Shown one piece after another: positions 2,609-17,470 of a stretch of DNA of 17,512 nt. The translations under genes were made by a program, and so were the position numbers. This stretch comes from Fidelibacterota bacterium (GTDB taxonomy: Bacteria; Fidelibacterota; Marinisomatia; Marinisomatales; TCS55). Below the pieces are notes generated by a model. That model did no database searches, had not been told where the DNA came from, and saw nothing but the letters and a program-made list of their open reading frames with translations. The stretch is from NCBI GenBank assembly GCA_046861385.1, contig JBHHTW010000039.1:1-17512 (forward strand), written 5' to 3'. The stretch's first letter is position 1. Every line of letters starts with the position of its first letter.

Positions 2609-4660
2609 ATGCGAATAAGCCAATTTTACATAATACTCTTACTTTTTTTTTCAACCTGTCAAAAGCCACTCAAGGACGCTGAAATACTCTGGGATGAGTA
2701 CGGTATTCCCCACATTTATGCTCAAAATGAGAATGATCTTTTTTACGCATATGGCTGGGCGCAGATGCATGCACATGGTGACCTGCTGCTTAAATTATAT
2801 GGGCAAGCTCGAGGACGAGCCGCTGAATACTGGGGAGAAAACTACCTGAGTAGCGATAAATGGATGTGGACTAATGGCGTTCCGAAAAGATCTGAACGCT
2901 GGTCAAAAGAGCAAGTAGAGCCCTATAAATCCATGTTGGAAAACTACGTTTCAGGGATAAATGATTATGTAGATCAAAACACTCAATATATTGAAGAAAA
3001 ATATAAAGTCGTTTTGCCAATCACTTTATCAGATGTGATGGCTCATGCGCAGCGAGTATTGCATTTTTCTTTCATGTTCAGTCAAGAAGATTTGAATACC
3101 AGTACATCTGATTGGAACGAAACAACCGGATCCAATACTTGGGCGATTTCACCTATACGTTCCTCATCCGGAAACGCCATGTTATTGGCAAATCCTCATT
3201 TATATTGGGGAGATTTGTACACTTGGTTCGAAATTCATTTGAACTTACCAGACGCAAATATTTACGGCGCCAGTCTTGTTGGATCACCAGCATTGGGAAT
3301 TATCTTTAATGAACACCTTGGCTATTCACATACGGTCAATACTCACGACGGAGCTGATCTATATGAATTAAACCTCAAAAATGGCGGATATGAATTTGAC
3401 GGTGAAATCAGAGAATTTCAGGTAGACTCTATCCAATTGAAAATAAAAAGTGACGACTCATTACGAACCGAGTTATTTATTGTAAAAAATTCGATTCATG
3501 GTCCCGTTGTGAAGGAGGAAAATGGAAAAGCAATCGCTTTAAGGATAGTCGGATTGGATGCAAGCCAAGTTTTTAAAGAGCGATGGGACATGGCAAACTC
3601 GTATAATCTGGTTGAGTTCGAAGCGAGCTTGAAAAATTTACAAACTCCCATGTTTACAGTGATGTATGCTGATATTGAAGGGAATATAATGCATCTATTT
3701 GGAGGACAAACGCCAGAACGTCCTCCGGGTAATTACGATTGGTCTGGAATTGTTCCGGGGAATACATCTGAAACATTGTGGTATGATGTTCATCCTTATG
3801 AAGATTTACCTCGCATAATAAACCCGGAGAGTGGATGGCTTCAAAATGCGAATGATCCTCCCTGGACAACCACATTTCCTGAAGAGATTGATCCGAATAA
3901 CTATCCAGAATATATGGCGCCGAGGAGAATGGGTTTCAGGGCCCAACGATCCGCAAGAATGTTAAATGAGGATGACAGCATTAGTTTTAAGGAATTGGTA
4001 GATTATAAATTTTCAACACGAATGGAATTGGCGGATCGAATATTAGATGATCTATTGGATGCGGCTTCTCTTGCGAAGGATAAAGAAATAAAGGAAGCAG
4101 TCCGGGTTTTAAAACGTTGGGATAGAACTGCAGATAATTCCAGTCGCGGGTCTGTGTTATTCAAGCAGTGGGTGGATGATATGAATTTTCCGGATGATTT
4201 TGCCATTCAGTGGAATGAACGAAGTCCAACTCAATTACCTGATGGCTTAAAGGACAGAACCATGGCAGTTCATCGCCTTTATGGGGCTGCGAAAGAAGTG
4301 AAAAGCAAATATGGTCGATTGGATGTTTTTTGGGGAGAGGTATTCAGATTGCAGCGTGATAGTCTTGATCTACCTGCGAATGGAGCTCCCGGTGATCCAT
4401 ATGGTGTATTTCGTACATCCTATTTCAAACCCACTAATGATAATAAGCAAAAGATAATTGCAGGTGATTCATACATCGCAGCGATCGAATTTAGCGACAC
4501 GATCAAAGCCCTAGGATTGATAGGATATGGGAATTTTAGTCAAAAAGGTTCAGTCCACAGAACAGATCAATTAAAACTGTATTCAGAGAAAAAATTGCGT
4601 CCCATCCATTTTTACAGAAAAGATGTTGAAGAAAATATTGTCGAACGAACAGCGTTTTGA
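2609..4660 (+). CDS. Penicillin acylase family Ntn-hydrolase (peptidase S45; glutaryl-7-ACA/AHL acylase-like), probable lipoprotein
   Basis: 683 aa. Alpha-subunit motif WDEYGIPHIYA. Beta-subunit start G|SNTWAI, with the nucleophile Ser175 at codon 3131-3133, then LLANPHL, HTVN, HGPV, YAD.EGNI and GWLQNANDPP. The N-terminus MRISQFYIILLLFFSTC looks like a lipoprotein signal. Confidence 0.9.
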   Translation: MRISQFYIILLLFFSTCQKPLKDAEILWDEYGIPHIYAQNENDLFYAYGWAQMHAHGDLLLKLYGQARGRAAEYWGENYLSSDKWMWTNGVPKRSERWSKEQVEPYKSMLENYVSGINDYVDQNTQYIEEKYKVVLPITLSDVMAHAQRVLHFSFMFSQEDLNTSTSDWNETTGSNTWAISPIRSSSGNAMLLANPHLYWGDLYTWFEIHLNLPDANIYGASLVGSPALGIIFNEHLGYSHTVNTHDGADLYELNLKNGGYEFDGEIREFQVDSIQLKIKSDDSLRTELFIVKNSIHGPVVKEENGKAIALRIVGLDASQVFKERWDMANSYNLVEFEASLKNLQTPMFTVMYADIEGNIMHLFGGQTPERPPGNYDWSGIVPGNTSETLWYDVHPYEDLPRIINPESGWLQNANDPPWTTTFPEEIDPNNYPEYMAPRRMGFRAQRSARMLNEDDSISFKELVDYKFSTRMELADRILDDLLDAASLAKDKEIKEAVRVLKRWDRTADNSSRGSVLFKQWVDDMNFPDDFAIQWNERSPTQLPDGLKDRTMAVHRLYGAAKEVKSKYGRLDVFWGEVFRLQRDSLDLPANGAPGDPYGVFRTSYFKPTNDNKQKIIAGDSYIAAIEFSDTIKALGLIGYGNFSQKGSVHRTDQLKLYSEKKLRPIHFYRKDVEENIVERTAF

Positions 4661-4675
4661 GAAAGTCGTATTATA

Positions 4676-4750
4676 CCGGCTTAAATGGAGGGGGGAGACA
4701 GACCAAGTAGATTACTAAATTAAAACCAAGGAGGTGGGCCTGTCTCCCGG
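4676..4750 (-). ncRNA. Candidate small RNA with an anti-Shine-Dalgarno loop
   Basis: Inverted repeat 4693-4704 / 4737-4748 pairs fully only on the minus strand (G-U there, A-C mismatch on +). The loop carries CACCUCCUUGGUU, and a second CCUCC lies 3' of the stem. Promoter-like elements are directly upstream. The boundaries are approximate. Confidence 0.5.
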
Positions 4751-4755
4751 TCAAA

Positions 4756-4761
4756 AGTATA
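4756..4761 (-). promoter_or_regulatory. Putative -10 box (TATACT) of the candidate sRNA
   Basis: The + strand reads AGTATA, which is TATACT on the minus strand, 7 nt before the first base of the stem (4748). Confidence 0.4.
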
Positions 4762-4783
4762 CATTATTCTTAATATGGGATGC

Positions 4784-4799
4784 TGTGATGTACCCCACA
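4784..4799. promoter_or_regulatory. CRP/FNR-family-like binding site
   Basis: TGTGA-tgtacc-CCACA matches 9 of 10 positions of TGTGA-N6-TCACA. Its centre lies about 42 nt upstream of the inferred minus-strand start near 4749-4750. Confidence 0.45.
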
Positions 4800-4996
4800 C
4801 AAAATGCTTTCATTTTAATAATTTAACTAAAACCGTTCTCTATTCACATTAAGAAGATATTGCATAATTTTTTTTTTGTGATTTACACATGTGTTTTTTC
4901 GAACCTTCAAGGTTGTTGAATGGAAACCCTTTGTTTGATTTTTAGGTCTTCTTATTTGTAGTTTCTTTTATGAAGGAAAGAAGCTAGTGTTGTGTC

Positions 4997-5006
4997 AACC
5001 AAGGAG
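4997..5006 (+). promoter_or_regulatory. Ribosome-binding site of the first TIGR02206 paralog
   Basis: AACCAAGGAG ends 12 nt before the TTG start at 5019. The spacing is somewhat long. Confidence 0.5.
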
Positions 5007-5018
5007 TAATATTAAAAA

Positions 5019-5738
5019 TTGACGAACCCACACGAAATTCTCGAACCCTTAAGCCCGATTTGGTGGCAGACCATTATTTGGTCAACGGTCATTATTGGAG
5101 GATTGCTTTATATTGCAAAAAAAATGAATACGAATCAAATTGCTTATTTTGCAATTGTGATTGGTGTGATACTCATTGCCCGTTCTATTCTAATCCATCC
5201 ATACGTAGCACAACTTAAAGGATGGGATATTTACAACAATTTGCCCTTGCATATGTGCGGACTTTCTGCAATCATTTCCGGTATTATAATGTTTTATAGA
5301 AGACAATGGTTATATGAAGTTCTGTATTACTGGGGAATCCCGGGAGCATTTCATTCTTTTCTGACTCCTGAATTTACACAGGGCACAGAAGGATTATTAT
5401 TTATTGAGTATTATTTAGCTCATGGTGGAATCATTTTCAGTGCACTGTTCTTCACTTTGGTACTTGGATATAAACCTTCGAAAGGATCCTGGTGGAGGAT
5501 TTTTCTCTGGACCCAATTACTTTTACCTATTATTGGTGGATTTGACTGGCTAATCAGTGCAAATTATATGTATCTCTGCGCACCTCCGATCGTTGATAAT
5601 CCTTTTATTTTCGGCGAATTCCCGGTACACTTGATTGGATTAGAATTTGCCGGATTACTCCATTTTGCACTAGTATATTTACCTTTCGGAATAAAATATC
5701 ATTATGCATCAAAAACTTCAGGGCCTGCAACTATTTGA
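5019..5738 (+). CDS. YwaF/TIGR02206 (TMEM164-like) integral membrane protein, paralog 1
   Basis: 239 aa, multi-TM. Motifs LPLHMCG, YYWG..G, FLTP, YYLAHG, ANYMYL, FGEFP. TTG start. Confidence 0.85.
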   Translation: MTNPHEILEPLSPIWWQTIIWSTVIIGGLLYIAKKMNTNQIAYFAIVIGVILIARSILIHPYVAQLKGWDIYNNLPLHMCGLSAIISGIIMFYRRQWLYEVLYYWGIPGAFHSFLTPEFTQGTEGLLFIEYYLAHGGIIFSALFFTLVLGYKPSKGSWWRIFLWTQLLLPIIGGFDWLISANYMYLCAPPIVDNPFIFGEFPVHLIGLEFAGLLHFALVYLPFGIKYHYASKTSGPATI

Positions 5739-6414
5739 CACGCTACATGTAAGTTATTTACTTGCATGGTTGGCTCTATGGATTCTGGTACCATTATTGG
5801 GGAAAAAATATCTTAATAAAGGTCAACAGAATATCGTAGTATGGATTATGATTATTTTTATGGTTGGGCAGGAAATTGTTGACTATTGGAACAGAACACA
5901 ATTTCGCCCCTTATCACTGGATCTTGATTTACCCCTCCACCTATGCCATTTATCACTCATATTTTCGGTTATTTTGCTTTATAGACCCAATCGTTATTTA
6001 TTTGAAATTACATATTTTTGGGGATTAGGTGGAGCAATTCAAACCATGTTGACCCCGGACACAACGGGGTTTGATAATTATTTATCATATTTTCTCATGC
6101 ATGCGCATCATGGTATGATCATATTAACGTGCCTGTGGCTGGCAGTCATTCTGGGGTATCGCTGTCGTCCGGGATCCATAAAACGAACTTTTATCTTAAC
6201 CAATATTGTCATTGTACCTGTGTGGCTTATTGACTGGTTGACTGGAGGGAATTATATGTATCTTATGGAACGGCCGCCCACCGAAAGCCCATTAGTATTT
6301 GGTGAATGGCCGTGGTATATCCTCAATATGGAAATAGTAGGATTCATTATTTTTTCCATATTGTATTTACCCATGATTTATTTGCGTAGGAAAGAGAAAT
6401 TGCAGACCTCGTGA
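5704..6414 (+). CDS. YwaF/TIGR02206 (TMEM164-like) integral membrane protein, paralog 2
   Basis: 236 aa. Motifs LFDTLH, LPLHLCH, YFWG.GG, MLTPD, HAHHG, GNYMYL, FGEWPWY. Overlaps paralog 1 by 35 nt. Confidence 0.87.
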   Translation: MHQKLQGLQLFDTLHVSYLLAWLALWILVPLLGKKYLNKGQQNIVVWIMIIFMVGQEIVDYWNRTQFRPLSLDLDLPLHLCHLSLIFSVILLYRPNRYLFEITYFWGLGGAIQTMLTPDTTGFDNYLSYFLMHAHHGMIILTCLWLAVILGYRCRPGSIKRTFILTNIVIVPVWLIDWLTGGNYMYLMERPPTESPLVFGEWPWYILNMEIVGFIIFSILYLPMIYLRRKEKLQTS

Positions 6415-7130
6415 CAGATTATATTCCACCTGAAGTGTATGGTTCACTGCATTTAAAATATATTCTGATGGGAATTGCTATGTGGACCATCATACCTATT
6501 ATTGGTAAAAAATTCCTAACCAAAACTCAACATCGAATCGCAGCGTATGTATTAATCATATTCACCATTGGTCAAGAAATAATAAATGATTCTTCGTTAA
6601 TGTTCCAAGGATTGTGGCAACTATCTGCTGATCTGCCACTGCACATGTGTGGATTTTCACTCTTCCTAACATCATGGGCATTGTACAATAAAAATCAAAC
6701 TGTATTTGAGCTGTCTTACTTCTGGGGTATGGCTGCATCAACACAAGCTATTTTTACGCCTGACTTAAGTGGCATTTGGAACCCAATAGGTATTTTTGTA
6801 TTTTTCTTTTCCCACTCAATGATTGTTTTGAATGTTATATGGTTATTGGTGGTGGGAGGAATGCGTTTACGGAAAAGTGCATTAATTAATACTCTCATTT
6901 TGACGAATGGGTTTGCATTTCTTATGACTATATTCAATTTTTTTGTTGAAGGAAATTATTGGTTTCTTTGTACCAAACCTGTAACAAACAGCCCATTTCT
7001 TATTGGTGAATGGCCTTTTTATATTGTGGGAATACAATTTGCTGGAATTATTTTAATGGGATTGATTTACTTGCCTTGGCTACCATATTTCCATCGAATG
7101 ACATTGCAGTCTGATTCCATCACAGCCTAA
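6411..7130 (+). CDS. YwaF/TIGR02206 (TMEM164-like) integral membrane protein, paralog 3
   Basis: 239 aa. Motifs LPLHMCG, YFWG, IFTPD, FFFSH, GNYWFL, IGEWPFY. The GTG start overlaps the previous stop (GTGA). Confidence 0.87.
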   Translation: MTDYIPPEVYGSLHLKYILMGIAMWTIIPIIGKKFLTKTQHRIAAYVLIIFTIGQEIINDSSLMFQGLWQLSADLPLHMCGFSLFLTSWALYNKNQTVFELSYFWGMAASTQAIFTPDLSGIWNPIGIFVFFFSHSMIVLNVIWLLVVGGMRLRKSALINTLILTNGFAFLMTIFNFFVEGNYWFLCTKPVTNSPFLIGEWPFYIVGIQFAGIILMGLIYLPWLPYFHRMTLQSDSITA

Positions 7131-7141
7131 ATTCAGTATAC

Positions 7142-8164
7142 ATGTCAACACTTTTACTGTACTTTTTTCTGGCCCTGGGTATTTCATTCCTATGCTCTTT
7201 ACTTGAATCTGTATTGCTCTCTATGAGTCCTACTTATATCAATTTATTAATGAAAAAACACCCAGTATCCGGAAAATTATTAAACAAATTAAAAGAGAAT
7301 ATCAATCGACCTTTGGCGGCAATACTCTCTCTAAATACGATTTCTCATACTGTAGGGGCTGCTGGAGTTGGTGCAGTTACGTATGATATTTTGGGTAGTA
7401 AGTGGGTAGCTATAATGTCTGGAATCCTTACGTTGTCTATCCTCATATTTTCAGAAATTTTCCCAAAAACCATTGGTTCCCATTATTGGAAACACTTGGC
7501 TGTATCTTCCGGATACATAATTCGCGGACTAATAATTATTATGTATCCCTTTGTTATATTGTTAGAAGTGCTTTCAAACTGGCTGAAGCCAGATGTAAGA
7601 CAGGATATTGTTACTAAAGAAGATGTAATAGCTATGGCAGAAATAGGGGAGGATGAAGGCACTATTGAAGAAGACGAAAGTACTATCATTGAAAATCTTC
7701 TTCGATTGGATAATATTACAGCAGAAGAGGTTTTAACTCCACGATCTGTCGTTTATGCGTTGCAAAAAGATTTGACAGTACGTGAGGCATTGGATGAATA
7801 TGACAATATCATTTTTTCCAGAATACCAGTTTATAATAAAGATCTGGATGAAATTACCGGTTTAGTTCGACGGGATAATTTACTCAACAGTAAAGCAGAG
7901 GACAAATTTGATGTAACCATGGATGCATTGTCGAATCCTGTTCATGTTGTTCAGGAAAAAGATTCTGTAGGAACAATTCTTGATGAATTTGTACGCCGTC
8001 GGGAGCATTTATTTATTGTCAAAGATGAATTCGGTCAATTCGTAGGTATCATAACTTTGGAAGATGCTATTGAAACATTATTAGGAGTTGAGATAGTTGA
8101 TGAAACAGATTCGGTGGTCGATATGAGAAAACTAGCTGTCAGTCAAAGCAAAGAACGGAAATAG
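7142..8164 (+). CDS. CNNM/DUF21 + CBS-pair membrane protein (CorB/CorC, 'hemolysin family'; Mg2+/Co2+ homeostasis)
   Basis: 340 aa. DUF21 motifs SFLCSLLESVLLS, PLAAILSLNT and IFSEIFPKTIG. CBS motifs LTPRS, FSRIPVY and DEFGQFVGIITLEDAIETLLG.EIVDE.D. The protein ends without a CorC_HlyC domain. Confidence 0.9.
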   Translation: MSTLLLYFFLALGISFLCSLLESVLLSMSPTYINLLMKKHPVSGKLLNKLKENINRPLAAILSLNTISHTVGAAGVGAVTYDILGSKWVAIMSGILTLSILIFSEIFPKTIGSHYWKHLAVSSGYIIRGLIIIMYPFVILLEVLSNWLKPDVRQDIVTKEDVIAMAEIGEDEGTIEEDESTIIENLLRLDNITAEEVLTPRSVVYALQKDLTVREALDEYDNIIFSRIPVYNKDLDEITGLVRRDNLLNSKAEDKFDVTMDALSNPVHVVQEKDSVGTILDEFVRRREHLFIVKDEFGQFVGIITLEDAIETLLGVEIVDETDSVVDMRKLAVSQSKERK

Positions 8165-8378: not shown

Positions 8379-11300
8379 ATGAAGCGTGCCCTCTGTGTAT
8401 TCTCTTTATTGGTTCTGGGACTGGCTGCGTCCATTCTACCTGCTAAGATTCAGTTCTTTTTAACAGAACTGGATTTTATAAGCAATCAGCCCGTTCCGGA
8501 ATCTGAAATACAATTTAAACCTCACTTAAGAGTAGATTATGATGATGCGAACAATGTAATTCAAAAACTGCACCTAAATAAGCAGGGTAAAGTTACAAAA
8601 ACAGAGATATTTACTTACGATTCAACCCAAATACTCAAGACAAAAGATATTTATGTCCCTGAAGAAATTCTTGTGCAGAAAATCATGTTTGGCTTGGAGG
8701 AAAAAGCAGTGGACTATATTGAGTATGTCTATGGAGTGGATACAGTAAAAGACTGGGCGGATCGGTTTTCCATAATGGATTATAATCACCTTTCTCAACT
8801 CACCAATCATTCATTTTACGATGTCAATGCATTCATGTATGGAAATGCCCATTTTGAATACGATTCACTGGGACATTTATCGAAAGAAGAATGGATTCGC
8901 CATCCATCAAAAAAAACGATGTATCTATGGAATCATTTCTTCGATCCTGTTACCCAACTCACGCGCATAATGGAGTATGATTCTAACGGCGTGTTGGTGC
9001 AGGATTTTCGTTTAAACCCGGATGGATCTGAATCCATATTTTGGTTTAAAAATTTGGAAGATTCCACCTTTATTAATCATACCAAACTCGTTTTTTGGAA
9101 CGAAAGTTTCTTAGAGTGGGGTCGTGTTGTTTTCTTTAAAGTGAATTCTGACAGCACACAACATGATAGTGTTCAATATACATTACAGAAACAATATTTG
9201 AATGAAGGTAATTTCTCAGTAGAAATGGAGCTGGACTCTCTTCTACAGGATAGTGCCATGTATAACATCGTATTTAAGGGCTGGGGAAAAAGTGGCTATA
9301 AAGCAACAGAGCGGGGAATTTATGGCGTCATATATGATATTTCTTCCCCCATATTAGAGCTGAATATTAAGCCGTTTATTAATAAACCTTTCATTGCGTA
9401 CGATCATTCAGAACCCCTTACAAAAGCATCTCTTGAATGGATCACTATGCACGATTCCACCCAGATACTTTCTATAGAATTTGATTCGTTAGATTTGACA
9501 AAGTCAGGAAATGGTAAATTTCGCCTAGCTCACCAGGAGGAACTGACAGATAGTGTATTCTACAGAGTGACATTATCGGGTGTCGATAGGGCAGGCAATA
9601 TTTCCACACCAACAGAGTTGGATTCCATCATGTACGATATTCAGCGTCCGATTTTAGAATTGTCATCACCGGTTGTCGGTGAGCATAGAAATATTTCTTC
9701 CATTGCTTTTGCTAATAACGAACCAATCATCTCTTGGAAGATCATGGTGAAGTCTATGCTAGGAGTACCTGATTCCTTATCTCCTCATTATTACGAAACT
9801 GATTCCTCATTTTTCGATCCCGGAATAATAGAAAAGGACTTGTCTGACGAATTTAAATTGAGTGACGGCACTGTTTATCGGTTTGAACTAAGTGGGATCG
9901 ACCGAGCCGGAAACATCTCAACTATACATTCCGTTGACTCAGTGACTTACGATATAACACCACCTATTTTAACCATTATTTATCCCGCTTCCGGAGCTGT
10001 GGTTAATCAAGCTACGATATCATATAGCAACAACGAAAAATTGAGAGCTGGTGAATTCCGCTGGGAGCAGACAGAGGGCACCATGGATTCATCGGCTCCT
10101 CATATAATTCCATTAATTCAATCAGAGTTAGAAAAGGGTGATCATATTCAATATCGTTTATCAAACCAGGAGGAATTGAATGACGGAACGGTATATTCCC
10201 TAATGTTCGTTGGTCAGGATTTTGCTGGAAACGAAGGAATCGCACCTTCCCATGCAGATATTTTATTTGACGCCGTTCCACCGGAATTTTCCGATATAAA
10301 ACCCCTGAGCGGTTCTGCGCTGAATTATAAACATGTATCGTATACCCTCTCAGAAAAAATTGAAAGTGGTTCCATTACATGGATTTGGTTGGGAGGCATT
10401 AAAGATGAATCATCGCCTCATATTATGTCTTTTGTTGGTGATGAAATGGAAATTGGCGTCCATGATTCAATAATGCTCGAAATGGATCCACCGCTCGCTG
10501 ATGGAGGTGAATATCAGCTGGAATTAAACGCTATTGACTTTGCTGGAAATGTCGCTGAAACAAAAGTAGTGAATAATATTTTGTATGATTTTACGCCCCC
10601 ACAGATTACAGTTTCATATCCTATGGAAATGTCATTCTTACCCAAAACAACAATGACTTATTTTTTATCTGAATCATTGAAAAATGGCTCATTTTTATTG
10701 GAAAGAATATCGGGGAAAGAAGACCCAAAATCTCCTTATGAAATAGATTTATCCATCAATGAAAAACTCGCTGGTGAACATAATGATGTCCATTTGATTT
10801 TTATGCCAAAAGTAATTGAAGGGACGGTTTATAAATTATCATTTAACGGTTATGATCGGGCAAATAATTATACGTCTCCACTGGTTTTATCAGGACTACA
10901 ATATGATTTTACACCGCCGATAATTTCTATTATTGATCCCATGGACAATACGGATGTAAACCATTTGAGGATTAATTACGAATTCAGTGAATTGATGAAA
11001 GAAGCTGAAGTGTCATGGGAATGGACAGGCGGCGTTAATGATCCAAACCCAATTCATGGTCAGTCATTGGTTAGTGATGAACTGGCAGAAGGTATTCATC
11101 AAGGGACAGAATTATTAAATTCTCCTAACTTAATAGATGGGGGAATATATAATATTTCCATTTCTGCAAAAGACAGAGCCGGCAATAGTTCAAATATCCC
11201 CTCGGTCAGCCAAATTCGTTATGATATTACGGCTCCCGTAATCGTGCTGAATTATCCATCTGAAGGATCGTATGTCTCGACACCAGTTATCAGTTATGAA

Positions 11301-14300
11301 CTCAGTGAGAACCTTGATAGTGGGAAAATAATATTTACGCAAACGGGAGGTTCACTTGATACATTATCACCCCAGGAATTTGTAATGAGTTTTGAACTGA
11401 TGGAGAAAGGTGAGCACTCAAATATATTCAAACTGGATGGACCTGAATTAACTGAGGGCTCCATTTACACTATATCAATCGAAGGTAATGATAGAGCTGG
11501 GAATGAAGCTTCGATTGCCAGCGTTTCAGGAATAATCTATGATGCAACTCCCCCGATAATTTCCCTTCACACAGCTGATTCATCACTATTTGTTAACCAC
11601 AATAGAATTTCTTTTTCAAAGAGCGAGCCCATAAAACGCGGTGTCATAACCTGGAAACAAATAGGTGGAACGAATGACCCGGCATCTCCCCTGGTTATCG
11701 ATCTCACAGATGATGAATTAAGTAAAGATTCGTATGATAACTATACATTAATGAACGCTCCTCACTTAAACGATGGCTCCATCTACACGATTGAATTTAC
11801 CGCTGTTGATTTTGCTGGCAATATAAGCGAAACAGCCCAAATGGAAAATGTACTCTATGATATTTCACCCCCCGTACTGCAAATCGTTTCTCCCGGAAAC
11901 AATTATATTACAAATGGAACTGAACTCAGCGTGTCCATCTCTGAGGATTTATCAAACGGAAAAATTACCTGGGATGGAATTGATTCCGAAGGAAACTCTC
12001 AGTTAACCTCTTGGGAATTAAAGGAAGGAATATTGAATGGAGGCCAATATGATGTTAATGATTATTATATTCCGGATCTTATAGATGGCGGAATTTATTC
12101 GATCACATTCAATGCTCAAGATCCTGCAGGCAATGAATCAATACCCGTCAAGATAGATAACTATCGAGTTGATAGAACCCCGCCTGTATTTACAAACATG
12201 AAACCAGTAACAGGTTCTTTTATCAACAGAGATTTTGTAGGATATACCCTCAGTGAAGATATGCAAAAAGGAGTGATCCTGATGGAATCAAAGAACGGGA
12301 CCATCAGCGTCCCTTTGCAAGGTCAGGAACTTAAAAGCGGTGAGCATCCGTTAGACCAGTTATTGGCAAAACCAAATTGGACGGACGGCGAAAATTATCA
12401 CTTAGAATTTGTCGGTAGTGATTTTGCAGAAAATGTTTCAGATACCGTGTATTTGAATGATATTTATTATGATATTTCTCCACCAATTTTCACGTTGACC
12501 AATCCCGGCAGTGATGACTATATAAATGAAACTATAGTCACATTTTCCGTCAATGAATCGCTAGCAAATGGACAAATGATTTGGGTCTCTGATACTGGAG
12601 ATTCCCTTGTGATTGAATTGGCGGAATCCCGATTGCTAAAAGGGGATCATGTCATAAATGATTCTATTGATTTTGTTGAAAAAATACCCTACTCCATATT
12701 TTTCAGGGGAATAGATCTGGCTGGGAATCACGGTTCGTCGGACCCCATATCAAATGTTCGATTTGATATAACCAAACCCGAACTGAAAATAATATCACCG
12801 GAAGAAAATTCGATTGTGAACCATTTATTAGTGAGTTACCACCTGAATGAAGATTTGCAATCTAGTAAATTGTTTTGGCAGGATGTGAGTGGCATGGATA
12901 ATAATTCAGTACATGAGATTGCTCTGACCGGGGACGAAATGATCGCCGGGGATCATATTGATATTACGTTAAACAAGTTACCGGAATTATTGGATGGAGC
13001 GTCCTATATGATCCAAATGGAAGGCTCGGATTTAGCAGGAAATAAGAACATAGCCGAACCAATTAAAAGTTATACGCTTGATTTTTCTCCACCGGTATTT
13101 TCAAAAATAAAACCTCCTTCCGGAGCGCTGATAAACCAGGTTGAACTTGAATACACAATTAGTGAAAATTTAAAATCAGGTACTATAACGTTCGTTCGGA
13201 CCGATGGTGAACCCGATCAAAAAAGCCCACATATTGTTAAGCTGTCCGGGAAGAAACTGAACAAGGGAACCCGAGGAGGTGTATTGCCATCAAACTTAGT
13301 ACCACTGACGAATGGCAGTGTTTATAAAATTGAATTTAGCGGAATAGACAGTGCCGGGAATACCTCAGAAGACATGGCGGTAGAAAACATATCTTTTGAT
13401 AATGAACTCCCAGTAGTTTTTATAAAAGCCCCTCAGCATAATGTTACTATAAACAACCTTGCTTGTGATTATATAATTGGCGAAGATATGGTTTCTGGGC
13501 AGTTAATAGTGGAAATTGATTCAAAAAATAAATTAGTCATTGAACTTAAAGAAGATGAAATGAAAGCGGGAGAATATGCACAGTTTCTGCCTCCTGAACT
13601 GGCTGAATTAGATGACGGAGTTACTTTGAATTTCACATTGGTAGGCAGTGATGCCGCCGGGAATATCGCAAAACCACACTCGATTGAAAATGTGAAATAT
13701 GATACAACTCACCCTGTGGTAACAATCGTTGATCCATCCACCGATGATATCATCAATTATACAACAATTTCTATAAATATTAGCGAAGATTTAGCGGTGG
13801 GGAATCTAACCATTATACAAACGGGAGGCGTAGTCGATAGCCGTTCACCGATTACAATTCCCTTGCAGACAACAGAAATGAAATCGGGATCTTATGAATT
13901 TATCCAATTGGAATACGGTCCCAAATTTCAAAATGGCTCGATTTATACTTACGAATTTTCCGGAGAAGATTTTGCAGGAAATCCGGTCTTAAGCCAATCG
14001 GTGATAAATATTTTATATGATAATGAACCACCTGTTATTTCAATCAGTAAACCCATCGATTCTGAACATATTAAGAACACGGAGGTCAGTTTTATTTCAT
14101 CTGACCAATTATCCCGCGGATTAGTCACTTTTGAACGAACCGGTGGATCAACGGATTCCAAGTCACCTCATGTAATTGAGTTAGAGGGAACACAGTTAAG
14201 AGAGGGCATACACATGGACGAAAATATTACTATTCCGAATGCTTTAGCAGATGGATCAATATATTTAATATCAATTCAAGGATGGGACAACGCCGGTAAT

Positions 14301-16874
14301 GAGTCAAAGATTGTTTCTGTAAAAAGTGTATTATTTGATGTCCTGCCTCCCACGCTCACGATTCATAGTCCCATAAATGGAGATGCATTTAATAATCCGG
14401 TCATCAGTTTTGAAATGAATGAAAAATTGGCGGAAGGAACATTCACTTTCAAACAAACGAGCGGTACCATCGATCCCGACAGTCCCCATATAGTAAACAT
14501 TTTGCCACCATATGATGTTCAGGGACGATATAATGATATCAATTATAGCAGTGATCTAACACTAAACGATGGGAGTATTTATTCCATAACATTCAATGCA
14601 AGCGACCCTGCAGGAAATGTGTCAGATCCGTTTACAGTTTCAGATATAATATATGACAACACTCCTCCCAAAATTTCCATTACATCACCAGTAGAAAATT
14701 CACATTTACGTAACATAACAGTGACATTTTCCAATGATGAAACGCTGATATCCGGCGCTCTTAATGTTGAGCAAACATTGGGTACTGCAGACCCAAATAG
14801 TCCACATAAAATTGACTTAATGAATGAATATCTCCTGCCCGGAGAACATAGTTTGACTGTTCAAAAAATGACTCAACTAATAAATGATGCTGAATATCGA
14901 ATCAAAATAAACGGGATGGATAAGGCAGGGAATGAGACAGTTTCTAATATAGTGGGGCAGCTTGTATATGATATCGAACCTCCCGTGTTGCAATTAACCG
15001 AACCATTGGCTCATTCTATTGTCAACCATTCCATTATCGGATTTATTTTAAATGAACCATTACAAAGCCTGAGTATAGCGTGGGTAGACGATGCAGGTAC
15101 GATTATACAAAAAATGTTGCCTGAAAAATATCGATTACCCGAAAAATATGAACGAATCGTGTTAGGGGACTCACCGGCATTAATCAGTGGTACAATGTAT
15201 ACTTTACAACTGGAGGGGACTGACTTAGCCGGTAATGAATCCGCAATAAAAATTGAGGAAGTTAAGTTTGACAATGAACCACCTGTTTTTACAGCTATCA
15301 GTCCATCAGAAAATTCCTATGTTAATCATACAAATGTTCATTTTGACTTCAATGAGCCGCTGCAATCAGGAGAATTAATTTGGACAGCTACAGGTGGCGC
15401 AACAGATTCACAAAGCCCAAGGAAAATCACCTTAAGTCAGCCTGAGCTTGAACAACCATTTTCTGCGCCGGCAACTTTGAACAATCAAAATCCGTTAAAT
15501 GATGGCACAATTTATCAACTATCCATTCGAGGAATGGATATCCCGGGAAATGAAACTGAAGTAAAATTAACAGAAAATATTCACTACGATATCTCTCAGC
15601 CAACTCTCACGCTCCTTTCGCCAGAGAATAATGATTATATTAATGATGACGATGTCGAATTTTCACTTAATGAGAATTTACTCAATGCTGTAATTTCCTG
15701 GACAAGGGTAGGGGGTGAGGCAGATCCTTTATCCCATAAGATTACACTTTCTGATGACCTGTTAACAGCTGGGGAACATTCAACGGCTGCCTTATCAGAT
15801 TTACCATTGGTCAGTGGTGCAATTTATAAAATTGAAATTTCGGGGACAGATTTGGCAGGAAATCAATCTGAAAGTGTTGGTAGTGTACAGGTCAATTATG
15901 ACACCACTCCTCCTGTAGTATCTATTACTTTACCTACAGTCAATTCTCAAATTAATATATTAAATATTTCCTATACCTTATCGGAGCCATTAAAAAGTGG
16001 GGAAATAATCTATACAAATGAAAATAATAGTACCATCGGCAAAACACAATTGAGTCCCAACGAACTAACTTCGCTCAATTGGGATAATAATGTATTGGAG
16101 AATCCATTGAATCTGGAAGATGGTGGTACATATACCTTAATTCTGCATGGAATCGATTTAGCTGGAAATATGGGTGAATCCGAAAAGATTACGGGAGTAC
16201 GTTACGATATTTCAAAGCCGGAGTTTACTATACTTCGACCGAAAGAAAACTACGTCAATGTTGAGAGCATTACCCATTATACAATAAATGAAGATATTGT
16301 ATCCGGCACAGCGACGTGGGTTCGCACAGGTGGTAAAATCCTTGGACCCGTTGCAACAGCAAACCGACCTCAGGTTATGGAATTGGTAGGTGATGAATTA
16401 AAAGGAGGAGATCATAAAAATATTCTGTTCACAAATTCTCCAAAATTAAACGCCACAACCATTTATAAGTTGACGTTAATTGGTACTGATGCAGCCGGAA
16501 ATGAAAGTCTGCCAACTTCAGTGGATGGTATTGAATTTATTCCTAACTTGGCCGGTAACTGGTATTTTCAGGGAGCTATTATGACCGTTGTCTGGACTTT
16601 CGAACCTGACGAAGGAGTGGAAGATCAATCAACAGGAATATTTTCACAAGGAATGCAAATGGGGACAAAGATCAGCAACCAGGAATATGGCAATTATACA
16701 ATCGATTATTCCGTCACGCCCTGGGAAATGGTGTGGGTAATGGAAAAATCAGGACAGCAACGATTCAGTATTTTTGAATTTCGGGATAATCTTCATTTGA
16801 AGGTTTTGACCAAAGATCGAAAAAAGCCTAAAAATTGGCGTGACGGCGAGGTGATGATTTATGAATTTCGGTAA
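8379..16874 (+). CDS. Giant secreted/surface protein with about 24 tandem bacterial Ig-like repeats
   Basis: Uninterrupted 2831-aa ORF with an N-terminal signal-like sequence (MKRALCVFSLLVLGLAASILPA). Units of about 105 aa recur, ending L.DG..Y.....G.D.AGN.S.......YD..PP. The protein is acidic, beta-strand-rich and almost free of Cys. Confidence 0.85.
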   Translation: MKRALCVFSLLVLGLAASILPAKIQFFLTELDFISNQPVPESEIQFKPHLRVDYDDANNVIQKLHLNKQGKVTKTEIFTYDSTQILKTKDIYVPEEILVQKIMFGLEEKAVDYIEYVYGVDTVKDWADRFSIMDYNHLSQLTNHSFYDVNAFMYGNAHFEYDSLGHLSKEEWIRHPSKKTMYLWNHFFDPVTQLTRIMEYDSNGVLVQDFRLNPDGSESIFWFKNLEDSTFINHTKLVFWNESFLEWGRVVFFKVNSDSTQHDSVQYTLQKQYLNEGNFSVEMELDSLLQDSAMYNIVFKGWGKSGYKATERGIYGVIYDISSPILELNIKPFINKPFIAYDHSEPLTKASLEWITMHDSTQILSIEFDSLDLTKSGNGKFRLAHQEELTDSVFYRVTLSGVDRAGNISTPTELDSIMYDIQRPILELSSPVVGEHRNISSIAFANNEPIISWKIMVKSMLGVPDSLSPHYYETDSSFFDPGIIEKDLSDEFKLSDGTVYRFELSGIDRAGNISTIHSVDSVTYDITPPILTIIYPASGAVVNQATISYSNNEKLRAGEFRWEQTEGTMDSSAPHIIPLIQSELEKGDHIQYRLSNQEELNDGTVYSLMFVGQDFAGNEGIAPSHADILFDAVPPEFSDIKPLSGSALNYKHVSYTLSEKIESGSITWIWLGGIKDESSPHIMSFVGDEMEIGVHDSIMLEMDPPLADGGEYQLELNAIDFAGNVAETKVVNNILYDFTPPQITVSYPMEMSFLPKTTMTYFLSESLKNGSFLLERISGKEDPKSPYEIDLSINEKLAGEHNDVHLIFMPKVIEGTVYKLSFNGYDRANNYTSPLVLSGLQYDFTPPIISIIDPMDNTDVNHLRINYEFSELMKEAEVSWEWTGGVNDPNPIHGQSLVSDELAEGIHQGTELLNSPNLIDGGIYNISISAKDRAGNSSNIPSVSQIRYDITAPVIVLNYPSEGSYVSTPVISYELSENLDSGKIIFTQTGGSLDTLSPQEFVMSFELMEKGEHSNIFKLDGPELTEGSIYTISIEGNDRAGNEASIASVSGIIYDATPPIISLHTADSSLFVNHNRISFSKSEPIKRGVITWKQIGGTNDPASPLVIDLTDDELSKDSYDNYTLMNAPHLNDGSIYTIEFTAVDFAGNISETAQMENVLYDISPPVLQIVSPGNNYITNGTELSVSISEDLSNGKITWDGIDSEGNSQLTSWELKEGILNGGQYDVNDYYIPDLIDGGIYSITFNAQDPAGNESIPVKIDNYRVDRTPPVFTNMKPVTGSFINRDFVGYTLSEDMQKGVILMESKNGTISVPLQGQELKSGEHPLDQLLAKPNWTDGENYHLEFVGSDFAENVSDTVYLNDIYYDISPPIFTLTNPGSDDYINETIVTFSVNESLANGQMIWVSDTGDSLVIELAESRLLKGDHVINDSIDFVEKIPYSIFFRGIDLAGNHGSSDPISNVRFDITKPELKIISPEENSIVNHLLVSYHLNEDLQSSKLFWQDVSGMDNNSVHEIALTGDEMIAGDHIDITLNKLPELLDGASYMIQMEGSDLAGNKNIAEPIKSYTLDFSPPVFSKIKPPSGALINQVELEYTISENLKSGTITFVRTDGEPDQKSPHIVKLSGKKLNKGTRGGVLPSNLVPLTNGSVYKIEFSGIDSAGNTSEDMAVENISFDNELPVVFIKAPQHNVTINNLACDYIIGEDMVSGQLIVEIDSKNKLVIELKEDEMKAGEYAQFLPPELAELDDGVTLNFTLVGSDAAGNIAKPHSIENVKYDTTHPVVTIVDPSTDDIINYTTISINISEDLAVGNLTIIQTGGVVDSRSPITIPLQTTEMKSGSYEFIQLEYGPKFQNGSIYTYEFSGEDFAGNPVLSQSVINILYDNEPPVISISKPIDSEHIKNTEVSFISSDQLSRGLVTFERTGGSTDSKSPHVIELEGTQLREGIHMDENITIPNALADGSIYLISIQGWDNAGNESKIVSVKSVLFDVLPPTLTIHSPINGDAFNNPVISFEMNEKLAEGTFTFKQTSGTIDPDSPHIVNILPPYDVQGRYNDINYSSDLTLNDGSIYSITFNASDPAGNVSDPFTVSDIIYDNTPPKISITSPVENSHLRNITVTFSNDETLISGALNVEQTLGTADPNSPHKIDLMNEYLLPGEHSLTVQKMTQLINDAEYRIKINGMDKAGNETVSNIVGQLVYDIEPPVLQLTEPLAHSIVNHSIIGFILNEPLQSLSIAWVDDAGTIIQKMLPEKYRLPEKYERIVLGDSPALISGTMYTLQLEGTDLAGNESAIKIEEVKFDNEPPVFTAISPSENSYVNHTNVHFDFNEPLQSGELIWTATGGATDSQSPRKITLSQPELEQPFSAPATLNNQNPLNDGTIYQLSIRGMDIPGNETEVKLTENIHYDISQPTLTLLSPENNDYINDDDVEFSLNENLLNAVISWTRVGGEADPLSHKITLSDDLLTAGEHSTAALSDLPLVSGAIYKIEISGTDLAGNQSESVGSVQVNYDTTPPVVSITLPTVNSQINILNISYTLSEPLKSGEIIYTNENNSTIGKTQLSPNELTSLNWDNNVLENPLNLEDGGTYTLILHGIDLAGNMGESEKITGVRYDISKPEFTILRPKENYVNVESITHYTINEDIVSGTATWVRTGGKILGPVATANRPQVMELVGDELKGGDHKNILFTNSPKLNATTIYKLTLIGTDAAGNESLPTSVDGIEFIPNLAGNWYFQGAIMTVVWTFEPDEGVEDQSTGIFSQGMQMGTKISNQEYGNYTIDYSVTPWEMVWVMEKSGQQRFSIFEFRDNLHLKVLTKDRKKPKNWRDGEVMIYEFR
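9034..16547 (+). repeat. Intragenic protein-level tandem repeat region (about 24 units of about 105 aa)
   Basis: Manual count gives 23 D-x-A/P-G/N/E-N motifs plus one degenerate first unit. The units are strongly diverged, and I saw no long identical DNA copies. Confidence 0.8.
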
Positions 16875-16954: not shown

Positions 16955-17371
16955 ATGGCAAAAGGAACTTCATTTGCAGCAAAATCCAAAGGAAAAAGTA
17001 AGAAAACACAATCCTTTGTAAAATATGTAAAAAGTATCAAATCTGAAAAGACGGGTCATTGGCGTTTTAATGAACAGATGGTTGCATTAAACGAAGGCGA
17101 AAACATAGATAGTGCATTAAAGCGTTTAAAGAAAAATGCCATGGCTTTGGATATGGAAATGCCGGTTTTTGATGAACCAAAAACAGAAGAGGCACCCAAA
17201 GAAGTCGAAAAGAAAAATGAATCAAAGACTGAAAGCAATAAACCAATGGAAGAGTCAGTAGATGCACTACCTGTGGACGAATCCAAGGAAGCAGTTGATG
17301 TTGAAGAAGATTCAAAAAGTGAACCAAAAGAAGAAGCAAAAGAAGATTCAGCTGACAAAAAAGACGAATAA
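16955..17371 (+). CDS. DUF4295/ribosomal protein bL38-like basic N-terminal domain with an acidic low-complexity tail
   Basis: 138 aa. MAKGTSFAAKSK...VKYVKSIKSEKTGHWRFNEQMV resembles the DUF4295 pattern (MAKK...K.VKS.KTG.Y.F.E). The last roughly 70 aa are E/K/D/S-rich and likely disordered. Confidence 0.65.
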   Translation: MAKGTSFAAKSKGKSKKTQSFVKYVKSIKSEKTGHWRFNEQMVALNEGENIDSALKRLKKNAMALDMEMPVFDEPKTEEAPKEVEKKNESKTESNKPMEESVDALPVDESKEAVDVEEDSKSEPKEEAKEDSADKKDE

Positions 17372-17380
17372 CTAATCGAT

Positions 17381-17470
17381 GGAGAGGTGTCCGAGTGGCT
17401 TAAGGAGCACGCTTGGAAAGCGTGTGTGCGTTAACGCGTACCGTGGGTTCAAATCCCACCCTCTCCGCCA
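17381..17470 (+). tRNA. tRNA-Ser (anticodon GGA)
   Basis: Acceptor stem GGAGAGG/CCTCTCC, discriminator G and encoded CCA. D-arm TCCGAGTGGCTTAAGGA. Anticodon arm CACGC-TTGGAAA-GCGTG (GGA at 17415-17417). Long variable arm. T-arm GTGGG-TTCAAAT-CCCAC. 90 nt. Confidence 0.97.

Follow-up and report, generated by a model that had tools for sequence, protein, structure and literature searches.

A conserved minus-strand RNA with an exposed anti-Shine-Dalgarno (anti-SD) seed and a promoter-like module of its own is the main finding of this analysis; its existence is well supported and, in our judgment, very probable. Repression of translation in trans is its most likely mode of action on the basis of its anatomy, and we assign a probability of roughly 60% to the reading that the locus is an independently transcribed sRNA gene of ∼70 nt, belonging to one order of the Marinimicrobia (SAR406), that acts in this manner. 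The RNA is encoded in the window, by which we mean the whole stretch of 17,512 nucleotides that was analyzed; it constitutes a complete contig (C77, 17.5 kb) of an assembly of 2.43 Mb with 38.9% GC and a completeness of 97.85%. The coordinates of all features are collected in Table 1.

Table 1. Features of the sRNA locus and its surroundings, in window coordinates.
Feature	Position	Strand	Basis or remark
CRP/FNR-type operator-like palindrome, plus-strand TGTGATGTACCCCACA = TGTGA-N6-cCACA	4784..4799		in 21/21 copies
-10-like hexamer TATACT	4756..4761	minus	read by eye from aligned strings
Predicted transcription start, at the stem base	4747..4751	minus	inferred from the hexamer position
Predicted sRNA, ∼70 nt	4678..4749	minus	covariance model, 73.7 bits on the minus strand
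5' arm of the outer stem, RNA GGGAGACAGGCC	4737..4748	minus	RNAalifold consensus and covariation
3' arm of the outer stem, RNA GGUCUGUCUCCC	4693..4704	minus	RNAalifold consensus and covariation
Seed CACCUCCUUGGUU	4724..4736	minus	4728-4736 (CACCUCCUU) single-stranded; 4724-4727 (GGUU) in the inner helix
Inner helix of 4-5 bp, 3' strand AAUC pairing with GGUU	4710..4713	minus	independent RNAalifold prediction
C/U-rich tail CCCUCCAUUUAAGCCGG	4676..4692	minus	U runs near the stem in most relatives
AACCAAGGAG, 10-nt perfect seed complement	4997..5006	plus	12 nt before the TTG start (5019) of a TMEM164-family gene

A covarying hairpin on the minus strand

The hairpin begins 33 nt 3' of a penicillin amidase gene, which is on the plus strand and has its stop codon at 4660; ∼270 nt beyond the hairpin, the plus strand carries three tandem TMEM164-family genes and then a CNNM/CBS gene. 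The element is present as a single copy in the window's genome. Its outer stem comprises 12 bp (4748-4737 with 4704-4693), all of which form on the minus strand, where one of them is a G-U pair that becomes an A.C mismatch on the plus strand. The 32-nt loop opens with CACCUCCUU (4736 to 4728, minus strand), a second CCUCC is found at 4691 to 4687, and TATACT is located at 4761 to 4756. An earlier note on this DNA had quoted the minus-strand string of 4676..4761, including the 12-bp stem, the 32-nt loop and TATACT; the quotation is exact, and its statement that the stem is fully paired solely in the minus orientation holds.

Folding of the 72-nt RNA (4749 to 4678) yields -24.2 kcal/mol, with a z-score of -3.42 and none of 200 shuffles as good. 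The plus strand of the same segment yields -21.2 kcal/mol (z -1.41, 20/200 shuffles as good), and a longer segment of 131 nt did not fold significantly on either strand. RNAalifold applied to 12 sequences predicts the outer 12-bp stem together with an inner 5-bp helix (GGUUA/UAACC) and leaves ACCUCCUU unpaired. When 20 sequences were aligned to the covariance model, 94.4% of the 338 cells were paired, compared with 43-58% in slid controls, and compensatory changes on both sides were observed in 10 of the 17 pairs, a level of covariation reached by 0/500 shuffles. The outer stem contributes most clearly, with 8 of its 12 pairs changed on both sides, while the inner helix, in which 88.8% of the cells pair and G-C changes to G-U, has weaker support. 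The 20-sequence alignment is biased towards the structure because it was fitted to the covariance model, but the independent MAFFT/RNAalifold result concurs. In the first alignment, which comprised eight sequences, the loop segment AACCAAGGAGG (plus sense) was invariant and the stem segment GACAG/CTGTC was replaced by GGCAG/CTGCC; more distant copies have wholly different stems and an identical seed. The covariation analysis on homologs that the earlier note had proposed as a check speaks for a compensating stem.

The strand was fixed as minus on account of the G-U pairs and the covariance-model scores. In the 20 sequences, 319/338 cells pair in the minus sense, 44 of them as G-U, versus 279/338 in the plus sense with 4 G-U, and the corresponding values in the 12-sequence set are 197/203 and 172/203. 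Covariance-model scores range from 28 to 94 bits on the sense strand and do not exceed 21.6 bits on the antisense strand. Both the pairing and the model scores thus agree with the original proposal of a structured RNA on the minus strand.

A plus-strand feature, either an SD hairpin driving a small ORF or a CsrA sponge with GGA motifs, would make use of the perfect AAGGAGGTG that the plus strand carries and of the two CCAAGGAGG copies found in the loops of some relatives (L048). We consider it extremely improbable, as no start codon stands at a proper spacing, the loop lengths differ by non-multiples of 3, and the plus-sense pairing is clearly worse, as given above. The first ATG past AAGGAGGTG is at 4775, 40 nt downstream, which bears out the view of the earlier note that the motif lacks a well-spaced ATG, and the sole plus-strand ORF listed there (4734..4826, 30 aa) starts at a GTG within the motif. 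The motif alone is unremarkable, with 14 copies on both strands of the genome and ∼12 expected from base composition; the decisive evidence for the element comes from the comparison of relatives. For a sponge of the CsrB/RsmZ type, the GGA motifs would moreover lie on the disfavored plus strand, and CsrA was not found in the 97.85%-complete genome.

The seed and the 16S rRNA tail

An unchanged loop core, CUCCUUGG, is shared by 20/20 sequences, and ACCUCCUUGGUU is almost as constant; the flanks of the core are altered in two of these copies, to AUCUCC and to GGGU. The 16S comparison was made on two relatives, G008 and G018, the window's own assembly being without a 16S. In both, the 16S ends with GGAUCACCUCCUUUCU, and CACCUCCUU is identical to this 3' tail, so that the identification of the loop with the anti-SD tail, made in the earlier note from the letters alone, was correct for these genomes. 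Past the matching nine bases the seed continues with GGUU and the 16S with UCU. The RNA accordingly has a conserved, unpaired C/U-rich seed supported by covarying helices, as is characteristic of sRNAs with an anti-SD seed. The second CCUCC past the stem, which had also been pointed out, does exist in the window's genome and is not conserved among relatives.

Some homologs have a second, partly stem-embedded copy of the seed in their loops, namely ACCUCCUUGG in L048 and ACCUCCCUGG in L035, and L042 also belongs to this group; the window's genome has a degenerate remnant, UAAUCUACUUGG, alone. A duplication of the anti-SD motif may have given rise to the loop.

The likeness to the 16S tail also admits a reading in which the RNA is real and acts on a protein, namely as a decoy of the 16S 3' tail that titrates a factor recognizing ACCUCCUU, for instance a ribosomal protein, a nuclease or an enzyme that matures or modifies rRNA. 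The seed and the 16S tail agree over 8-9 nt, the invariance of the seed extends well past what SD pairing alone would require, GGUU is likewise conserved although it is partly paired, and a conserved sRNA-specific target could not be proven, all of which would fit a decoy. However, the locus has no linked candidate protein partner, its conserved neighbors being membrane proteins (TMEM164, CNNM), and the GGUU extension departs from the 16S (UCU at this place) but matches the AACC before the SD in candidate mRNAs. A decoy function thus appears unlikely to us.

Distribution in the Marinimicrobia

BLAST searches with the intergenic region showed that the stretch past the amidase stop is 75-80% identical within the genus and 68-69% identical in a second genus. 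A pattern scan of species-representative genomes returned 33 matches, 13 with the hairpin, all from Marinimicrobia or from an 'uncultured bacterium'. A covariance model was built from 12 sequences and then used to find distant copies. Among 61 relatives, the RNA was detected in 15: every one of the 6 genomes of the window's genus (the window's own included), all 4 genomes from a second genus in that family, both g13 genomes and a single genome from each of three additional genera that were examined. The remaining 10 genera of the family, as sampled by these 61 relatives, yielded no copy. A sample of 151 genomes of the phylum gave seven convincing matches, all from the same order as the window. 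Five weak matches to the model (G015, G071, G072, G149 and G181; E 0.001-0.007) were rejected, the seed being absent from them. A scan of the genome collection resulted in 49 matches, 21 of which fit the model, and none came from another named phylum. The total number of carriers amounts to 24 Marinimicrobia genomes, always with one copy.

At gathering scores, the only Rfam match in the window was a tRNA, and a permissive scan of 4600-5030 gave three matches of 13-16 bits, to be compared with gathering scores of 41-100. Neither scan provided a match for the element, as anticipated by the earlier note, which had called the RNA undescribed.

A promoter-like module and the predicted 3' end of the RNA

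Each of the 21 tabulated copies has a TGTGA-N6-TCACA-like box that matches at 8-10 of the 10 half-site positions; without exception (21/21), the RNA-proximal half-site reads TCACA in the RNA sense. The distance from the box to the stem downstream of it is 29-36 nt, and the box center lies 37.5-44.5 nt from the stem base (20 copies). The N6 spacer varies and the far half-site changes without compensation, as would suit a protein-binding DNA site better than an RNA helix. By eye, a TAnnnT hexamer can be recognized in most copies ∼21-23 nt past the box and ∼5-8 nt before the stem, and it is ambiguous in a few (x052, G008, G037). The TATACT that had been noticed just upstream of the hairpin turns out to belong to this conserved module of box and hexamer.

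Given the position of the hexamer, transcription would start at the stem base, which places the center of the box near -41 to -43. In class II CRP promoters, a 16-bp TGTGA-N6-TCACA site is centered near -41.5 and is combined with a -10 hexamer in the absence of a -35. The spacing at the locus is like this geometry, and we regard the module as a putative class II CRP-type promoter. A generic sigma-70 scan detected no -35/-10 pair at the site, which is consistent with an activator-dependent promoter, as such a promoter would be without a -35. The Bacteroidetes -7 motif TAnnTTTG was also considered as a promoter model and was dismissed, as it fits the window's genome and L052 and not most copies.

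The window's genome encodes two clear regulators of the Crp/Fnr type, one of which, the C80 protein (C80:126911-127588), carries RETVSR in its recognition helix, which looks similar to the RETVGR of CRP. A phyletic match between the sRNA and this Crp-like regulator was not obtained: close homologs of the C80 protein (the top ones 56-93% identical) are encoded in almost all 61 genomes searched, and a regulator that is nearly ubiquitous gives no means of telling sRNA-bearing genomes from the others. Elsewhere in the window's genome there are 3 perfect TGTGA-N6-TCACA boxes (C15:5861, C75:60430 and C79:8945), all of them intergenic, with shuffles averaging 2.8 genome-wide; the same Crp-type regulon might extend to these sites.

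In most relatives a U run follows within ∼10 nt of the stem, for example CAUCUUUUUA, UUUUUCAUU and CUUUUUUUA. The tail of the window's own copy, CCCUCCAUUU, is weak as a terminator, and a simple terminator scan found no match at the site on either strand. The 3' end of the RNA is probably near 4680.

With its start 33 nt past the amidase stop, the element could be taken for a mere terminator of the penicillin amidase gene, or for a palindrome that matters at the DNA level, devoid of any RNA function. For a plain terminator, the stem is expected to be kept and the loop not; the opposite was observed, with a loop core conserved in 20/20 sequences and a stem sequence that varies with compensation. 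In addition, the 32-nt loop contains an invariant core of 8-12 nt, the plus strand has no T run and the terminator scan was empty, the G-U asymmetry favors the strand opposite the amidase gene, and the conserved promoter-like module faces the hairpin. Nor is the amidase gene a constant neighbor: other genes adjoin in G008, G037, G046, G049 and G162, so that the element occurs without it. As the flanking genes differ between families, the element is independent of the penicillin amidase gene, and we hold a mere terminator or palindrome to be very unlikely.

Association with TMEM164-family genes

Despite rearrangements, a gene of the TMEM164 family is located within ∼0.2-2.4 kb of the element in 10/11 contexts; in the eleventh (G046), the contig ends before the upstream side. 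The TMEM164 gene is divergent from the RNA in the window's genome (G000) and in G008, G049, G162, G191, G192, G193 and G195, and it is co-directional and downstream in G037, with a cupin gene in between, and in G194, across a gap of ∼0.6 kb. The gene downstream of the RNA is convergent in G000 and G046, and the co-directional downstream genes of G037, G049 and G162 encode a cupin, a Fer4 protein and an alpha/beta hydrolase, respectively, which are unrelated families. A cis-regulatory 5' leader or riboswitch was rejected, as there is no conserved co-directional downstream gene across the copies.

The seed complement in front of the first TMEM164 gene of the window (Table 1) forms a duplex of -16.3 kcal/mol with the seed, and 2 of 200 shuffles were as good. 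This AACCAAGGAG site is absent before TMEM164 in relatives of the same genus and is therefore either lineage-specific or due to chance. In only 3 of the 11 genomes did the seed form a duplex with the divergent 5' region that was better than those of shuffles, and the sites differed. On these grounds, the TMEM164 mRNA was discarded as a conserved direct target. The TMEM164 linkage is the strongest conserved association of the RNA and is real, yet base pairing does not explain it; the simplest idea is a shared control of the sRNA and TMEM164 via the box.

The element might instead be part of the TMEM164/CNNM cluster, functioning as a cis leader or attenuator or as a local regulator expressed from the same Crp-type box. 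The constancy of the TMEM164 neighbor (10/11 contexts) and the 10-nt seed complement at the ribosome-binding site (RBS) of the first TMEM164 gene would agree with such a role. In most genomes, however, the RNA faces away from the cluster and into a convergent gene, which excludes a leader role in those genomes; the seed complement is not kept within the genus and pairing is significant in 3/11 genomes, and the 4-6 TMEM164 paralogs per genome raise the chance of adjacency somewhat. We judge a function within the cluster to be rather unlikely, and an sRNA acting in trans continues to be our preferred reading.

Several further observations concern this neighborhood. At 5019-8164 (+), the window holds three tandem TMEM164-family (PF14808) paralogs followed by the CNNM/CBS gene; related genomes have 4-6 such paralogs, and the pairing of TMEM164 and CNNM recurs in G049 and G162. 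The region 4925-4990 (+), upstream of the first TMEM164 gene, is conserved throughout the genus (AAACCCTTTATTTGATTTTTAGGTCTTCTTAT...) and in part alignable in a second genus. In the window's genome a hairpin, TAGTTTCTTT / AAAGAAGCTA, comes next, with GAAGGA(G) in its loop. The region might serve the TMEM164/CNNM operon as a promoter or as a 5'-UTR element. Further downstream, 8379-16874 (+) is occupied by an ORF of 2831 aa with the bacterial Ig-like domains Big_3_3, Big_13, Big_3_2 and InlK_D3, the product of which is probably a giant surface or adhesin-like protein. An ORF of 138 aa with a DUF4295 match, at 16955-17470 (+), is directly followed by a tRNA-Ser(GGA) at 17381-17470.

Candidate targets

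In the window's genome, SD-like motifs are concentrated at -14 to -8 before start codons; of 1430 crude ORFs, only ∼25% have such a motif, versus a background of 8%, and the anti-SD seed consequently has substrates. The seed complement ACCAAGGAG occurs 18 times in this genome, six times at RBS-like positions. These six sites precede 3 of the 23 genes for TonB-dependent receptors, a gene for a protein with a T9SS tail that lies directly upstream of another receptor gene, a gene for a 69-aa membrane protein and the first TMEM164 gene. Four other sRNA-bearing genomes from four genera contain 20 AACCAAGGAG-ATG sites, three of them without an ORF. The 17 sites that precede an ORF belong to 6 TonB-receptor-like genes, 4 genes for the 68-69-aa membrane protein and 7 others (RecA, a NiFe hydrogenase small subunit, an Atg22-like MFS protein, Yip1, LVIVD and two unknowns).

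The number of AACCAAGGAG-N3-9-ATG sites per genome averages 4.3 in the 15 sRNA-bearing genomes versus 1.26 in the 46 others, and ∼0.2 for a reversed-pattern control; these averages were summed by hand after removal of the site of the sRNA locus itself and of one overlapping duplicate. For one receptor, the orthologs have the full 10-nt site in 8/9 genomes with the sRNA versus 0/15 informative genomes without it, many of which read AATCAAGGAG at this position; G036 (no upstream sequence) as well as G010 and G019 (start not located) were dropped from the count. This association is, however, phylogenetically clustered, which counts against a specific link: 2 changes suffice to place the sRNA label on the gene tree of the receptor, and with only 2 independent contrasts, which agree but give p = 0.5 in a sign test, the test of co-evolution was underpowered. 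The receptor orthologs of the sRNA-bearing genomes, which represent three families, cluster apart from those of other genera of the window's family. This arrangement suggests a distinct receptor subfamily, or a transfer, that would travel together with the sRNA.

A specific link is weakened further by the fact that many genomes in which no sRNA was found have likewise retained AACCAAGGAGG at the 69-aa protein gene; the motif can be explained without the sRNA. The gene, located in the window's genome at C36:49051-49257 (-), encodes a hydrophobic protein of 68-69 aa with orthologs L210, L219, L223 and L226 and a weak, sub-threshold match to the TrbC/VirB2 pilins, and its ribosome-binding region AACCAAGGAGGAAC..ATG is deeply conserved across the family. 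The AACC prefix, which would pair with GGUU, does not speak for a specific link either: it is found at only 5 of the 113 RBS-like AAGGAG sites of the window's genome, a frequency tied with those of AAAA, AAAT and TTTT. Taken together, the TonB-dependent receptors and the 69-aa membrane protein with AACCAAGGAG sites are suggestive candidate targets as judged from their RBS sequences.

Proposed mode of action

We propose that a Crp/Fnr-family activator binds the TGTGA-N6-TCACA box centered ∼41-43 nt upstream of the start and would thereby switch on a promoter that has a -10-like hexamer and is devoid of a -35. Transcription would begin at the base of the 12-bp GC-rich stem, and this stem, in conjunction with the C/U-rich tail, may also terminate the transcript. 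As shown by covariation, the stem keeps the internal loop open and displays (C)ACCUCCUU, the copy of the 16S anti-SD, followed by GGUU. The seed could then pair with mRNAs that have an extended AACCAAGGAG(G) ribosome-binding site, occlude the SD and lower translation. A subset of the TonB-dependent outer-membrane receptors and the 68-69 aa membrane protein would tentatively be the likeliest targets. Because the search of the window's genome revealed no Hfq, the RNA probably works independently of Hfq. The pairing mechanism itself is deduced from the anatomy of the RNA and from precedent.

It is conceivable, though improbable, that the RNA is a soluble copy of the anti-SD, switched by the Crp-type regulator, that competes with the 30S subunit for every strong SD or titrates a factor reading the 16S tail. 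This lineage seems to rely on an SD for just about a quarter of its genes. The RNA would then be a translational mode switch and not a gene-specific repressor, and would shift translation globally from the SD-dependent class, with its abundant outer-membrane receptors, to SD-independent mRNAs.

Relation to known sRNAs and biological significance

Precedents for repression in trans by an anti-SD seed exist in other bacteria. According to the published account, the sRNAs alpha-r14/NfeR1 (and AbcR1/2) of alpha-proteobacteria carry an ultraconserved anti-SD CCUCCUCCC unpaired in hairpins, the stems of which vary, and alpha-r14/NfeR1 pair at the translation initiation region and thereby silence mRNAs, NfeR1 being Hfq-independent (PMC10746234). 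CyaR (RyeE) of enterobacteria is described as CRP-dependent and as pairing with the SD of ompX, an mRNA for an outer-membrane protein (PMC11795201).

The Marinimicrobia RNA shares with alpha-r14/NfeR1 the unpaired conserved anti-SD motif and the variable stems. In contrast to them, it has one hairpin where they have three, its seed ACCUCCUUGGUU is nearer to the true 16S tail, and it comes from another phylum and is preceded by a Crp-type box, whereas theirs is LsrB/NtrC control; sequence or structure homology and an Rfam match are lacking. With CyaR it has in common a Crp-type box at class II distance and, as candidate targets, outer-membrane TonB-dependent receptors, both of which are putative on the side of the Marinimicrobia. 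However, it shows no Rfam match, and CyaR is Hfq-dependent, while neither Hfq nor CsrA was found in the window's genome. Unlike the 16S 3' tail itself, the motif sits in a 70-nt hairpin RNA with its own putative promoter and continues with GGUU rather than UCU. In our best reading, the RNA represents a new family of trans-acting sRNAs with an anti-SD seed, akin in kind to CyaR and NfeR1 and a member of neither. A search of the literature, supplements aside, yielded nothing relevant on sRNAs of Marinimicrobia/SAR406 or on the seed string.

The Marinimicrobia (SAR406) abound in oxygen minimum zones and in the dark ocean, and their lifestyle is considered to be dominated by outer-membrane uptake machinery. 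The locus constitutes a complete testable module, in which a putative Crp-type operator and promoter are combined with a covarying hairpin that has an invariant seed; the family could enter RNA family databases and be followed in metatranscriptomes. It also points to a persistent partnership with bacterial membrane proteins of the TMEM164 family. If the link to the TonB-dependent receptors is true, the RNA would tie a nutrient-type signal to the outer-membrane uptake machinery of these bacteria.
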